64,000 nt of DNA from a plasmid. The stretch lies in sequence record NZ_CP102478.1; one strand, written 5' to 3'. The number at the start of each line of letters is the position of its first letter. Within the stretch, counting starts at the first letter, position 1. Positions 6,001 to 12,000 of the stretch are shown piece after piece. Position numbers: made by a program.

Positions 6001-9000
6001 AAGATCGCGCCGTCGCCCATCTTGACGATTGCGCCCGCGATGAACGGCACGAGCACCACCATGTATCCGATCATCGCCTGCTCGTCGACCAGAGTCGAAT
6101 CGAACGCCGAGGAGAGCTGGAACGGCACGCCGGCCGACAGGTGCAGCGCCGTCAGCTTGTAGTGCAGCCACATTAGTGACAGGTGGTTGATGATTGCGAA
6201 CAGCAGCGGCCACAACCCGATCCACACGAGGATCATGAAATAGCCGCCGAGGACGTACTTCGCCTTCTCCTGCGGTACCACGATCATCAGCAAGACCATG
6301 ACAGGGAACAGGGCGTAGGTGATCGCTTCGATCCAGTTGCGCATGTGCGGGATCGTTTCTTGGCCGAGCAGGCTTAGGGCGCTATTCGACCCGTTCGCCT
6401 GGCGCGCCGCTTCTGCCTCCGCGATAAGAGCGTTTGTGTCGGCGATCGCCGCCGGGTCGTCGTGCGCGCGCGCGATGCCGGGACCCGCGTCCCGCCAGAT
6501 GTTGTTGAACATCGCCTGCTTCATGGCATCCGAGGCTGACTGCGATGCGTCGAGGAGCCACGAGTAGGACGTCGAGACGGTCGAGAGGAACATCTGCTGA
6601 GCGATCCCGTCCGAGCTCACCTGCGGAAACGCCTTGCGGCCATAAAATGCTTGTGCGTCCGCGACGGCAGCGTCCACTCGTGGCTTGAGAAGCAGCGCCA
6701 CGTTCTGGCACGTATCCGTGACGGGTTGAGCCGTCAGCACGTTGTATGTAACGAAGCGGGCAGGGCTGGTATTGCTGAAGATCGTGTTCCACGTGTCCGT
6801 CGCACCGACGATCTGGCTGGGCGCGATCGCCCCGTCCAGGATGTCGTACTTCGTACACTCCTTGAAGAACTGCATCAGGTCGGCGCGGAGCGCAGGATCG
6901 CGTACCACTGCGGAATTCACCTGCCGCAGAATTCGGTGACCAAAGCCTACGTCACCCTTCGCGAGACCGAGATCATCCGGAACATTGAACGCGGTTTCGT
7001 ACGCGCGCGTCAGGAACCCGAACGAAAGCGAGCTTGCCTGCGCGATTGCGGCAAGCGCCACCGGCACATGATCGACCTGCCGAGGGGGCTGGAGGTCCGT
7101 GCGATCGGAAAGCATCACTCGCGCGATCGGCATATTGAGAATCGTGACAAACGCGAACGCCTGAATGAACCACATCGCCATGTCGCCGTGGCGCCCCATG
7201 TACGCGAACATCGCGATGAGCAACGCAACGAGGAAGACGAACTTGATCAAGCCGGGCCACCCGCCGCTCGTCATCACCGATGCGACGGCGTTGAGCACGT
7301 AGTAGAGCGTTTCGACGTTCCAGTAGGTCTGGATCTCGATGTTCATAGCCGCCCCTTAGTTCAAGCTTTTGCCGAAAGCCAGGGACGAACGCAACGTCTC
7401 CGACAGGTTCGAGTCCACCGCGCGCTGCATCGCCGCTAATTCCGTGGTGAGCGAATGCGTGCTGACGGTGCGCGTGTACGCCTGCATCAGCGCTTCGTGC
7501 GCCGTATTGCGGATACGCTCGAGCTGCGGTTTCAGGTCGCTCAGCGCCTGCGTCTGTGACGAGTCAGCGAGCGCTGCATATTTCCCGATCGCGTCCTGAA
7601 GGTCCTTCGTGCATCGGCGAATGTACGTTTCGGCATATTTCGCCGCGATCAGGTCGATGTAGACACCCATCGTGCTGTCGGCAATCTGCGTGTTGTTGTA
7701 GCGCGTGCCGGCCGCCAACATCGCGTAGATCGGAAGGTCGGTAGTGTTCAGAAACGCTATCACCTGGCTCACGTCGTCGTGCGGCGATCGCGCAGCAATG
7801 TGGTCGACCATATTGTTCATTTTCGTCATCACCATTGATCGGAAGCTGCGGGTCGACAATTGATCGCTGTAGGGATTTAAGCAGCCATCGTCGGTGGTGG
7901 TGTCACAACGCCAGATCGGCACGTTGATCGTGTCGCCGTCTACACCATTGCCAATCAACGTCGCTACGTCGATGTCTGTCGGCATCAGGGGCTTGGGCGC
8001 CTGCGCGTTACCTTGCGTCGGGAAAATCATGCTGCCGACCAACGACATCAACACCATGCGTTCTTCGTCCGTCATCCCGTCGATCTTCTTCAGCGCCTTC
8101 CACACCACGTTGCCCGTCGGCAACACGTCCTTCGCCGCCGGATTGCTCTGCTTCACCTGGTCGATGACGTCGTCAGCCTTGTTCTCGTCATTCATGACGT
8201 TCGTCCACGCGTCAGTAACGTTCTCGAAGATGTTCGAGTCGACGCCGAAGTTCTTGGCGGCATCCTGCCGGCCGCGCGTCCACGTGTCAGGGAGTGCCGC
8301 GTTGACCAATCCCTTCGCGGTCTCGCACGAATCCATGTTCAGTCGATTGATCTGCTGCGCGGTCGCCTGCAGAGCCTGCATGACGTTGTCGCACGTAGGA
8401 CACAGGTTTTGAATCGCAAGCTTGAAGCCGTAACCGAGCGCATTGGAGCCAATGTTGCGCAGCATCGCGACGAACTGCTCCTTGTTGATAAACGAGAATC
8501 CGCCCATGAACAGGTCGATTCCGCCACACCCGGCATTCCATGACGGAGGTGTCACGGAACTCAATTGATACGTGCGCTTGGGCATACGCATAAACAGCGA
8601 ACCGCCCGAGTACATGTTGAGCGTTTGGCCTTGCAACGCCGCCGGACTGGTGTAGTTCCCTTGGGCGTTCACCGTGTCGAACAGCTGCTGCATCGACATT
8701 GCGGCCGCCGGTTGGGTGTATGCGAGACATGCGATCGACACGCTCGCCAACAGGACCTGCAGGCCGCGCAGATACCGCCGAAACAGGGGGGAAGCGAGAA
8801 GCTTAGGCATGTTGGCCTCCGTCATGCGAGACAGTTCGGGATTGCGGGCCAGGCCGGCCAGGCAGGCGCTCGGCCGACCCGGTTGTCGAACGGTCGCTTG
8901 GCAACGCGTGATGAATGACGTCGTCGAGGATGCGGCCCGCCAGCTTCTTGCCGACGCTGATAACGCGCTCGTCGCCTGGACGAAATACCCGTTCGTCGCT

Positions 9001-12000
9001 CCCGTCGTGGAACGCACCGTCGAGAGAAACCCAGCCGTGGGCGCGCGCAGCTTCGAGTTGCTCGTTGGTCGCATTCGTTGCCGGCCGCCATTGGCCCCAT
9101 TGCTTGAAGAAGAACGGCACGTCGGCCGCTAGGCATTGGTCGCGCAGGTGGCGCGCCCAATCCGGATGAATCGGCCGCGCGCCGCGGCCGCTCTCGCCCC
9201 CAGCGATCAGCCAATCCAATTCTTCAAGCGCGTTGGTGCAATCGCGCCAATTCGCACTTGTGAACATGCCATCGAAGCTGACTGGACCAAGCAGAGGCTC
9301 CATGCTCAGGAAGCGCACACGTGCCGGCACCGCGAGCAACTTCGGAATTTCGCGATCGGCCTCGCCCTGGTTGACGATCGTTGCGCCGAGCCAGACGGTC
9401 GGCCACGCCAGCTCGTCCCACGTGTTGAGCCCGTGGGACAGCTCGTCGACTACCTCGTTAAGCATGTCGCGTGCATTACCGATTCTTTTCGTAAGCAACA
9501 ACCAATCGAGATTTGGCGTGCGCGCAATCAGCTCGAACAGATCTCGGCGCCACGCTGGATCGACAGCGTTGTCGAACGGATCGCAGAGGCTCGGGAAGAT
9601 TCGAAAGCGCTGTCCAAGCTCGCGTGCCTTCCGATCCCACCTCAGCGGCATCCTCCACGAGTCCGGCGCAGTGCGACGACGAGGTGCTCCCGCGCCCCAG
9701 TTCACCGCGGTGCGACCGCCGAAGCGCGCGTTGCGCGCCTCGGCGTAACAGTGGTCACAACCCGGCCCGACCTTCTGGCAGCCTTCCCACGGCGACCAGG
9801 TGTGGTCACACCACTCGATATTGCTGTTCTCGCTCACGAAATGCTCTCCTGGTTCACAACGGGAACTGTCCGAGAAGCCTCTGCCGCCACTCGTTCGAAG
9901 TAAAAGACGATCGGTGCCGCGGTCTCTACGACCAAACCGAAGCGACGCGCGTGGCGATAGGTTGGGTAGTTCTTGTTGAGCACGTCGAGCGTGCGGCTCA
10001 GCTTCCCGCGCCATGCCTCGAGATCCATCGCATGCTTGTCGATGTTGCAAGGCGCGCAGGAGGGCATGAAGTTCTCGATGACATCGAACTCCGGCCGGGT
10101 TGGCGGGCCCGACCTCCAGCGGTAACCACGGTCGGTCTCCACGAGCTTTAGATCGCGTCGTACGGGCTCGAAATGATCCGCATGCCAACGTTCGGACAAC
10201 GGCATCCCGCAATAGGCGCACCGCCCGTCGTACTTGCCGCGCAATTCATCGCGTTGAGCTTTGGTGAGGCGGCTCATCCCGCCGCCTTCACGGTTGGCTC
10301 ACCGTGGTGCCAGAGAAACGCGCAGTAGGCGGCGACGTCGAGCTGGTCACCCTTCGCCACGTGACGCATCAGTTGCTCCCGGCACTCGTCCATCCAGTTG
10401 GTCGCTACCCACGAGTCCGCGTATCCGTACTTGTGCTCGGCTTTCGCAAGCTTCGATGCCAATGCGATGTGAAATCGTCGGACCAAGTCAGCCGTACGCG
10501 GATGCAGGTCGTGCGGCATCGGGTCAGTGGCGCAGCCGGAGGACGGCAGCGATTCGGCCGCCGGGCTGTCGGAGTGACCTGCCGGATCGAGGAAGCTGGC
10601 GCCTTCGTCGGGATACTCCTCATCCCACGCATAGAGACCAGCTCCCGAATGACCTGCCGCACCAAACTGCACCGTCACGACCGTGGACTCGTCGACGGCT
10701 AGCGCGAGCAGTTGCAAAATCTGCATCCGATTCAGCCGAACTGCCGAGGAGATGCGTGTCGTCGCCACGTCCGGAATTTCCACACTGGGTTGGTCGGAAT
10801 ACATGCGAGCCTCCTTAGAAGGTCTGCCCGGGCTGTGTCCCGGTCAGCACGAACAGTCGGTTGACGATTTCTGATACCGACATCGCCCCGAAGCCGATCG
10901 CGGCGTGGTCGCCCGTCTGCTTCGAGCCAATGAAGAGCGCGGGCACACGCTCGACGCCCCATGCGACAGCCTGTGCACGGCCATCGGCCGGATGCGGAAA
11001 CTCGTCGATGCCGCGGCCGTCGACTGAAACGCCCAAGACATCGATTCCGTATTTGTCTGCGAGCATCTTCACGGCCGGAGCCATCGCGTGGCAGTAAGGG
11101 CAGTCAGAGCGGAAGAAGAAGATCAGCCCATGGTCCTTGGCTAGGGCACGCAGCTGCGCTTCCTGATCCTGGTCGCGCTGCGCGTCGAACACCTTGATCG
11201 CCGAATTGTTTGCGGGCCGGGTCAACGTGTAGTCGAGCGCAGGGTTCTGCCAGACGACGCGACGCCACGTATCAGCAAAGGTCGAGCCCTTCTGCTGGGT
11301 CACCTGCCAAAGCTGCAGGTAGTCGCGGATGTGGTCGTCGGTTGGCTCCATCGTCGCGAGGTCGAGCCGGCGCGCGAGTTCCTTTCGCATCTGCTCTGCC
11401 GTTCGGATATCTGGAATTTCAATTCGCTGGGGCTCTGCGTTCGGTGCCGGCGCGGCCGGAGGAGCAGCTGCTGTGGGCGGCGCTTGGTCCACGTCGTCGC
11501 AGTACCAGTTGGTGCGCGGCGCGTATGGGCTCACATCGCCAGCACGGCAATTCCAGATCGACGGGTAGTCGAGCGGATTGTCAGCCGCGTGGGCGACGCC
11601 GGACAGGGCGATCGCGGACGAAAGAAGAATGGGAAGCGTAGGGCGCATGGTGTTACTCCAGGTCGCCGGGCGGGCTACCGTCCGCGCAGATGTTCATGTG
11701 CATGGTCAAAACTGCGTCGTCGCGGCCATTCGGGGTCATGGCACCCGCCTGAGTCCACACGAACTGAACACGTTTGCAGTCGGCCTGAGGCAGATCCCTC
11801 TCGACGGTCGCAACTACCATCAGTGCTCCAGTTGCCTGGAACTGGCGCCGAAACTGCTCCGCGATCGGGCCCGTCACGATCCCCTGCGCATGCCCATGGC
11901 GAATAGCGTCGGCAGTGAGCGCTCGCGTGTCGTCGTAGACTTGACCGTCACCCTCAGCTCGGGCCGACGAGATCGCAAACAAGGCGCTTAGCGTGAGCGC

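Follow-up and report, generated by a model that had tools for sequence, protein, structure and literature searches.

Coupled genes between traF and traH

The DNA analysed here (the window) is a 64,000-nucleotide stretch of sequence record NZ_CP102478.1 from a Burkholderia F-type plasmid, and the subject of this report is a cassette of three genes situated between traF and traH of its type IV secretion system (T4SS), within the operon for mating-pair formation (Mpf). The three genes encode a protein without a family name (open reading frame 1, ORF1), an HNH endonuclease and a DUF5131 protein of the phage Gp37/Gp68 family. The window is 98.2% identical to p2327 of B. pyrrocinia DSM 10685, a plasmid typed as MPF_F, MOBF and conjugative, and two B. 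cenocepacia plasmids are 91% identical to the window region. The RefSeq record of p2327 was found to have the same gene calls, with the products given as hypothetical protein, HNH endonuclease and phage Gp37/Gp68 family protein, and with TraF likewise annotated.

As proposed in the initial annotation, the three genes (8803-10804) were found to be co-oriented on the minus strand between PF13728 and PF06122 genes (Table 1) and to be connected by start-stop overlaps: (i) ORF1 and the HNH gene overlap by ATGA (10277-10274), with ATG as the start of the latter; and (ii) the HNH and DUF5131 genes overlap by GTGA (9837-9834), with GTG as the start of the latter. The ATG of traH (8810-8808) is placed within the last 8 nt of the DUF5131 gene (stop codon TAA, 8805-8803), and ribosome-binding sites were detected ahead of DUF5131 (AGGAG, 9850-9846) and traH (GGAGG, 8820-8816). 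No sigma-70-like promoter was found in the 7300-12700 region, and hence none inside the cassette; terminators were also absent from the cassette, with four terminator-like matches (a chance-level number) all located outside of it. No Rfam family was matched within the window. Because of the 4- and 8-nt overlaps and the lack of internal promoter and terminator signals, it is firmly supported, as judged from the sequence, that the trio is made together with the Mpf operon.

Table 1. Positions of the cassette genes, their boundaries and other features of the window.
Feature	Position	Strand	Description
traH	7356..8810	-	Downstream boundary; PF06122, E 1.1e-107; start as in RefSeq p2327
DUF5131 / phage Gp37-Gp68 family protein	8803..9837	-	344 aa; PF07505; predicted radical-SAM enzyme
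HNH endonuclease	9834..10277	-	147 aa; PF01844, phrog_2118
ORF1	10274..10804	-	176 aa
GGAGG ribosome-binding site of ORF1	10810..10814	-	Directly after the traF stop, 5 nt before the ORF1 ATG (10804)
traF	10815..11648	-	Upstream boundary; thioredoxin-like pilus assembly protein; PF13728, E 4.8e-69; TraF in p2327; stop codon TAA at 10817-10815 (read from the sequence)
Small ORF adjoining traF	11653..12087	-	144 aa
Small ORF	12039..12347	-	102 aa
Small ORF	12344..12610	-	88 aa
Transposase-like ORFs, overlapping	13676..14751	+	
IS5/IS427-like element	13849..14756	+	908 nt; absent from p2327; flanking alignments overlap by 9 nt
GntR-family regulator and phospholipase-D-family (Nuc-like) protein	~19352..20756	-	Beside signal peptidase I gene; by correspondence with p2327 record 96988-98392

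Profile hidden Markov model (HMM) searches upheld two of the three domain assignments made at the outset. The DUF5131 protein matched PF07505 over the entire profile (positions 1-243 of 243; E 2.3e-81; 273.3 bits versus a cut-off of 28.9), and the HNH protein matched PF01844 (E 1.6e-5; 25.4 bits versus a gathering cut-off of 21.4). The exception was ORF1, for which the suggested relationship to DUF550 (PF04447) was rejected, as no match was detected at E <= 10 and none of 57 family members matched at E <= 1; nor did ORF1 have any match in Pfam (even at E <= 10), NCBIfam or PADLOC. The view that the genes are of phage-type families was borne out by PHROGs matches for all three: phrog_2045 for the DUF5131 protein; phrog_2118 ('HNH endonuclease', E 4e-46) for the HNH protein; and phrog_16519, phrog_4838 and phrog_34459 (E 5e-21 to 9e-16) for the C-terminal 80 aa of ORF1. 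Overall, the sequence comparisons provide firm support for the trio as phage-derived accessory cargo.

The DUF5131 protein is predicted to be a radical S-adenosylmethionine (SAM) enzyme because of its fold and two invariant motifs. Its model (structures throughout are predictions) displayed a partial (beta/alpha)6 TIM barrel of the radical-SAM type, with spore photoproduct lyase (SPL) as the closest fold, and a disordered C-terminal tail of ~30 aa (317-344), the DNA of which holds the traH ribosome-binding site and start codon. The cluster motif CX6CX2C (C20, C27 and C30), of non-canonical spacing, and four residues of a GGES motif at 213-217 (G213, E215, S216 and G217) were invariant in 43 sequences. 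DUF5131 is listed in the literature as a radical-SAM subgroup (PMC9477430); literature searches for DUF5131, Gp37/Gp68, PF07505, TcmP, PDC-M30/M41 and HNH genes in IncF tra operons returned only this RadicalSAM.org listing and incidental mentions, and no sequence-level relative of DUF5131 was found in the PDB. More than 7,900 homologues were detected at E < 1e-10, of which the nearest (55-68% identical) were mostly on Burkholderia chromosomes, in prophage early regions, and viral contigs yielded at least 584 matches. In these genomes and in the viral contigs, DUF5131 ends a run of small early genes, and genes for a conserved 232-aa protein, a DUF4224 protein and an integrase-like protein often come next; among 80 viral and prophage loci examined for their neighbourhoods, DUF5131 was upstream of DUF4224 in 21 and of the integrase-like protein in 31. 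In the cultured Burkholderia phage phi1026b, the DUF5131 protein gp38 (57% identical) is encoded three small genes from int and attP. Two further observations were made in these loci: the 232-aa protein, which is without a Pfam match, follows DUF5131 in most of the 21 of 80 loci having it; and 8 of the 80 have a co-oriented reverse-transcriptase (RVT_1) gene, mostly upstream, at a distance of up to ~3.5 kb from DUF5131 (e.g., L055, 4334-6004).

The HNH protein has the core CxxC...HxDH...N...CxxC-N, of which C23, H32, D34, H35, N69, C74, C77 and N78 were invariant across nine homologues, followed by a C-terminal domain that is conserved in the family. Its nearest phage relative was gp50 of Burkholderia phage Bcep176 (80% identical), which is encoded in an early region with methylase, endonuclease and recombinase genes.

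ORF1 was found to consist of two parts: (i) an N-terminal region of ~95 aa predicted to be disordered; and (ii) a C-terminal three-helix 'KGD..DVAAY' domain of ~75 aa, with pLDDT > 90 for residues 100-170 in the AlphaFold2 (AF2) model. The consensus of this domain was LHP.TADLVRRF..ALA.KLAAAE.KYGY.D.W..PDWMDECR..L.EHVAKGDPRDVAAYCAFLWHHGE, with W132, G152, D153 and D156 invariant. Full-length homologues of ORF1 were detected in Burkholderia only, while the C-terminal ~75 aa recur in many modular proteins of 105-640 aa, including several metagenomic homologues in which an N-terminal zinc ribbon of the restriction-alleviation protein Lar is fused to the domain. An HMM of the ORF1 domain also detected the C-terminal half of the Lar-family proteins that pBTU and pRF23 encode at the same junction, as well as a 366-aa protein encoded directly upstream of DUF5131 in B. 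glumae. ORF1 did not match the Lar zinc ribbon (PF14354), whereas the pRF23 homologue and P0081 did.

Cargo at the traF-traH junction of related plasmids

The interval was compared among related plasmids by a TraH scan with short peptide patterns and one genome per species, which provided 23 loci only (TraH 43-98% identical); this and the other neighbourhood surveys are samples and not censuses. In 15 of the 23 loci, with TraH 43-65% identical, traF was found to directly abut traH (gap of 0-60 nt), including loci of Malikia, Telluria, Oxalicibacterium, Curvibacter, Aromatoleum, Paraburkholderia ferrariae, Delftia, Ideonella and Acinetobacter. Because of these cassette-free loci, the comparison indicates that the ancestral order is traF then traH and that the trio is an insertion, representing optional cargo and not core machinery. 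This finding agrees with the earlier proposal of non-T4SS cargo travelling with the pilus genes, and the absence of the trio from the 15 loci speaks against the alternative raised at that time, in which all of this T4SS lineage would have the trio as core machinery. The immediate flanks of the trio had no direct or inverted repeats, and the base composition of the region was unremarkable with no GC anomaly; a transposon-type insertion was ruled out on these two grounds.

Within the surveyed loci, DUF5131 was detected at the junction only in the Burkholderia clade. Other cargo occupied the same site elsewhere: an HTH_37 protein in Mycoavidus (L011, 3966-4301); RhuM and a Fic/DOC protein in Ottowia (L024, 9009-9989); a YhcG/DUF1016 PDDEXK nuclease in Ca. 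Glomeribacter (L026, 8823-9944); and YhcG with DUF1173 in a Burkholderiaceae metagenome-assembled genome (MAG) (L027, 7615-9983, with DUF1173 at 8700-9983). Judging from these sequences, the traF-traH junction is a cargo hot spot, at which the Burkholderia clade retains DUF5131 as the constant element.

The order and overlaps of the trio were identical in B. pyrrocinia, B. cenocepacia, B. contaminans, B. ambifaria and B. sp. SRS-46, and the layout of 176 aa, 141-147 aa and 350-377 aa proteins with 4-nt overlaps and traF/traH flanks was found in B. sp. SRS-46, B. contaminans, B. ambifaria and one Logan assembly. The more distant Burkholderia plasmids pBTU and pRF23 (TraH 75% identical) have a longer insert, which comprises a Lar-family gene, HNH and several hypothetical genes and ends with DUF5131 overlapping traH. 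In pBTU (L002, NZ_CP009547.1), an unannotated chimeric ORF (~13560-14350, minus strand) was identified that joins the N-terminal third of an N6/N4 DNA methylase (SPPY motif; PF01555, E 5e-14) to the C-terminal half of an HNH protein 83% identical to that of the window, with a short HNH N-terminal fragment nearby. The HNH gene of pRF23 is intact and its product only 54% identical to the window HNH. The pBTU fragments are rearrangement scars, as read from the sequence, and the traF-traH interval is clearly in flux. A further arrangement was observed in bglu_4p of B. glumae BGR1 (L005, 4824-7056), where the 366-aa ORF1-domain protein is followed by DUF5131 (48% identical) inside an F-type operon but at a position unlike the traF-traH junction, between traB-hypothetical and dsbC-traV-traC; an HNH gene of the window type was not detected in this locus (tblastn, E <= 1e-5). 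Thus, an ORF1-domain protein accompanies DUF5131 in all three of the tra-operon arrangements seen.

Selection on the cassette was estimated by the Nei-Gojobori method as the ratio of nonsynonymous to synonymous substitution rates (dN/dS) for the window versus two relatives, L037 and L008, respectively. The values were 0.31 and 0.23 for ORF1, 0.11 and 0.17 for HNH, and 0.31 and 0.20 for DUF5131, compared with 0.04 and 0.02 for TraH and 0.02 and 0.03 for TraG. These estimates indicate that the three cargo genes are functional and under purifying selection (dN/dS 0.1-0.3), yet less constrained than the T4SS genes. It is firmly supported that the trio is conserved and under purifying selection within a single clade of Burkholderia cepacia complex plasmids. 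The dS of DUF5131 exceeded that of the flanking tra genes two- to fourfold (0.65 vs ~0.17 and 0.83 vs ~0.45 for L037 and L008), and because this synonymous divergence is far above that of the flanks, it suggests that the DUF5131 allele was swapped through recombination while the neighbours were retained.

The HNH family was found to have settled in other transfer operons as well. Homologues were present on 2,695 plasmids, 2,443 of them conjugative and mostly enterobacterial. In IncF plasmids, with placement taken from two sampled plasmids, the HNH gene occupies the trbC-traN interval, with an overlap of the traN start (pSLT, L119, 4995-5414; and pKP8022-KPC, L123, 3495-3917), while on IncHI2 and other large plasmids it is found among PAPS-reductase-family, DUF6012, Dam and RdgC genes. 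An HNH-containing trbC-traN junction (at least ~85% DNA identity) was detected in 309 of 5,426 complete E. coli genomes, compared with 2,511 for the adjacent traN segment, and no paper on this HNH junction was found in the literature searched. The initial impression that an HNH nuclease within a secretion operon is unusual therefore did not hold, since genes of the same family are common inside IncF tra operons. This distribution indicates that the HNH gene is accessory and variable, with at least two entries into F-type operons.

Several other features were noted in and around these operons. The early statement that no insertion sequence (IS) or other mobile remnant surrounds the trio was accurate for its immediate flanks but not for the operon at large, as an IS5/IS427-like element, which p2327 (otherwise 97-98% identical) does not have, interrupts traN near codons 2-4. 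The element is thus in the same operon, ~3 kb upstream of the trio, and it probably inactivates traN or is polar on downstream genes including the trio, traH and traG. Of three small ORFs between traN and traF (Table 1), all without a family match, the one of 88 aa is rich in cysteine; that of 144 aa is kept in 19 of the 23 related genome loci at 34-75% identity and, because of this conservation beside traF, may be an unrecognised T4SS component. The GntR regulator and Nuc-like genes are further non-T4SS cargo of the same tra operon. DUF1173 was encountered repeatedly: downstream of traG, where it is paired with a zeta-toxin-family protein, in pBTU (L002, 1893-4627) and pRF23 (L003, 1893-4633), and adjoining DUF5131 in a Cupriavidus pauculus plasmid (L006, 4049-5266), in addition to its location at the MAG junction.

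Neighbourhoods of DUF5131 and possible roles of the cassette

In the plasmids and prophages sampled, DUF5131 was found to recur beside Lar, methyltransferase and PAPS-reductase-family genes. These neighbours include a C5 methylase, a nucleoside 2-deoxyribosyltransferase and a PAPS-reductase-family protein in Ralstonia pRMAN01; a DNA methyltransferase and a non-specific endonuclease in a C. metallidurans plasmid; and a C5 methylase and a 564-aa Lar-domain protein in a B. cepacia prophage. P. aeruginosa pF068 combines Lar with an N6 methylase and a PAPS-reductase-family protein beside DUF5131. In the C. pauculus plasmid, a 3'-5' exonuclease is encoded beside DUF5131 in addition to DUF1173. ORF1 homologues were not found near DUF5131 in pRMAN01, the C. 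pauculus and C. metallidurans plasmids, pF068 or a Rhodoferax plasmid.

On this basis, we tentatively favour the explanation that the cassette is phage-derived nucleic-acid-modification or anti-restriction cargo, placed at a recurrent traF-traH insertion point and expressed with the Mpf operon. A nucleic-acid modification or anti-restriction accessory module would be the most likely role of the cassette because (i) DUF5131 has a radical-SAM fold resembling that of a DNA enzyme and is found with Lar, orphan methyltransferases and PAPS-reductase-family proteins; and (ii) the C-terminal domain of ORF1 is linked to Lar, and methylase and Lar genes are present at the junction of sister plasmids. 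The anti-defence or DNA-processing function suggested in the initial annotation thereby gained circumstantial support, from the association of Lar with the ORF1 domain, the methylase remnant at the sister junction and the neighbours of DUF5131. In such a module, DUF5131 would perform radical chemistry on DNA or a nucleotide precursor, ORF1 may be its partner or modulator through a C-terminal domain like that of the Lar-fusion proteins, and the HNH gene may be a mobile companion drawn from the gene pool that phages and plasmids have in common. Through their coupling to the tra operon, the cassette proteins would be made whenever the plasmid readies itself for transfer. In a stronger form, DUF5131 would modify DNA or a precursor and, with an ORF1/Lar-type partner, constitute a new conjugation-coupled shield of the transferred DNA against restriction in the recipient; here the protective proteins would be made in the donor along with the pilus, such that the plasmid departs already protected. 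We regard this stronger form as improbable.

Several considerations weigh against the favoured explanation. We infer the substrate, the anti-restriction effect and the cooperation among the three proteins, and the functional case is one of guilt by association; no functional or mechanistic study of DUF5131, the ORF1 domain or this HNH family was found in the literature searched. The Mpf operon of MOBF/F-type plasmids is expected to enter the recipient late and is thus a poor location for early-acting genes, such that donor-side action (modification prior to transfer) or protein transfer must be assumed. The methyltransferase and ParB-like genes of the plasmid, which are taken to be of the leading-region type, sit away from the cassette. 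In the prophage loci, HNH was near DUF5131 in 0 of 80 and the ORF1 domain in 3 of 80, which indicates that the three genes are not an obligate unit; a conserved phage trio was ruled out by the same counts. The three tra-operon arrangements with an ORF1-domain protein may have common ancestry and so not be fully independent. Finally, PADLOC lists DUF5131 under candidate defence and not anti-defence systems.

An alternative explanation is that the cassette acts in donor-side defence or exclusion, guarding pilus-bearing donors against pilus-specific phages or rival elements with HNH as the nuclease effector and DUF5131 functioning as in the PADLOC candidates. DUF5131 matched component B of two such systems, PDC-M41B (E 7e-47) and PDC-M30B (E 1e-46), the HNH protein weakly matched Septu PtuB models, and co-expression with the pilus genes would match the timing of phage exposure; moreover, the junction cargo of other plasmids includes Fic/RhuM and a PDDEXK nuclease, and the reverse transcriptase noted above lies close to DUF5131 in some prophages (8 of 80 loci, mostly upstream). 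However, the PDC systems are candidates only, neither TcmP (TIGR04474) nor any other PDC-M30/M41 component was matched by ORF1 or HNH, and the genuine DUF5131-TcmP pair that was identified, on one P. aeruginosa plasmid, has a shorter DUF5131 subtype (~247 aa). The PtuB similarity is at the level of HNH proteins in general (E 1e-5). Donor defence is considered rather unlikely. Somewhat less doubtful, though still unlikely, is that the cassette is selfish, with a free-standing HNH endonuclease that cuts cassette-free traF-traH (or trbC-traN) junctions and is copied in by repair, and with ORF1 and DUF5131 as phage hitch-hikers of no benefit to the plasmid. This would be consistent with the sporadic occurrence of HNH between well-conserved tra genes in two unrelated plasmid groups, with its presence in far fewer E. 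coli genomes (309) than the adjacent traN segment (2,511), with the rearrangement scars of pBTU and the unequal identities of the pBTU fragment and pRF23 allele (83% vs 54%), and with the elevated dS of DUF5131 that points to allele exchange. Nonetheless, the HNH protein is small (147 aa) and has no Pfam or NCBIfam domain besides HNH, purifying selection is observed on all three genes across species with order and overlaps kept, and the B. glumae tra operon has DUF5131 without an HNH match.

Two further explanations were given less weight. SPL repairs DNA, and the similarity in fold raises the question of whether DUF5131 is an SPL-like radical-SAM enzyme that clears lesions from plasmid or phage DNA, with HNH and ORF1 assisting in damage processing. 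The identity to SPL is only 12%, however, and the CX6CX2C spacing of DUF5131 is unlike the CX3CX2C cluster motif of SPL; furthermore, the neighbours of DUF5131 are methyltransferases and Lar, with no annotated repair genes among the neighbourhoods examined, making DNA repair quite improbable. Function within the T4SS itself, where the trio would stand in for the TraQ/TrbB/TrbJ/TrbF-type factors of F and be needed for pilus assembly or DNA transfer, is suggested by the position and translational coupling of the genes inside the Mpf operon and by the presence of assembly accessory genes in the same interval of F-like plasmids (pSLT annotation). Counter to this, the 15 loci that have the same order of compared tra genes are empty between traF and traH, all three families are chiefly phage or nucleic-acid families, and scans of Pfam, NCBIfam, PHROGs and PADLOC gave no T4SS family for any of the three. 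Because of the cassette-free relatives, a role in T4SS assembly is largely excluded, and we consider this explanation very improbable.

Implications and comparison with known systems

Accessory genes within transfer operons are seldom studied, and the cargo of the traF-traH junction comprises nucleic-acid enzymes, restriction-alleviation-type and toxin-type proteins. The new aspects of this work are the recognition of this junction as a cargo hot spot, the pairing of ORF1-domain/Lar-type proteins with DUF5131 in F-type operons, and the parallel with the IncF HNH genes, the same family having settled independently in transfer operons of clinical IncF plasmids. All three genes extend families that were already known and had RefSeq annotation before, and the cassette adds to the cases of DNA-acting accessory genes carried within transfer operons without representing a new kind of system. 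The context of DUF5131 is compact and genetically tractable, with purifying selection, natural cassette-free relatives and sister plasmids that carry Lar and methylase genes, such that its function is testable; it thus provides a good entry point to a large radical-SAM family that is without a reported function in the literature searched. If DUF5131 acts on DNA to aid transfer, it would represent a new enzymatic class among plasmid anti-restriction strategies, and if it protects the plasmid, this would be the first function for a family with more than 7,900 homologues detected across phages, prophages and plasmids. If DUF5131 does not aid transfer, the locus would still be a clear example of phage-to-plasmid gene flow.

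When compared with known systems, the window DUF5131 is similar to its phage counterparts (e.g., phi1026b gp38) in its full-length HMM match, invariant three-Cys and GGES motifs, radical-SAM-type fold and 57% identity. The two differ in setting, as the phage gene is located at the end of an early operon by xis and int, whereas the window gene is coupled into a T4SS operon and encodes a disordered tail of ~30 aa. SPL (PDB 4FHC) is closest in predicted fold; the identity is low (12%), the Cys spacing is different, and a common activity is not implied. The window HNH resembles both Bcep176 gp50, a protein of the same family with 80% identity, and the IncF proteins of pSLT and pKP8022-KPC, with 42-43% identity over the full length; the catalytic residues and C-terminal domain are the same in each case, and in both plasmid groups the HNH gene extends over the start of its downstream neighbour. 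Unlike the IncF genes, which reside at the trbC-traN junction, the window HNH gene is at traF-traH and is linked to DUF5131 and ORF1. With Lar/Ral-type restriction alleviation, the cassette has in common the C-terminal domain of ORF1, which is that of the Lar-family proteins of pBTU, pRF23 and the metagenomic fusions, and the neighbourhoods of DUF5131 hold Lar and orphan methyltransferases as in anti-restriction islands; it departs from these in that ORF1 is without the Lar zinc ribbon and the genes are in the Mpf operon, apart from the methyltransferase/ParB-like block. In the gene order of F, the traF-traH interval likewise holds co-oriented and tightly packed genes, the content of which varies among plasmids (pSLT annotation). 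The F genes of this interval, however, encode assembly factors of the pilin-chaperone and disulfide-isomerase type, whereas the trio is non-homologous to these and consists of nucleic-acid enzymes of phage origin.

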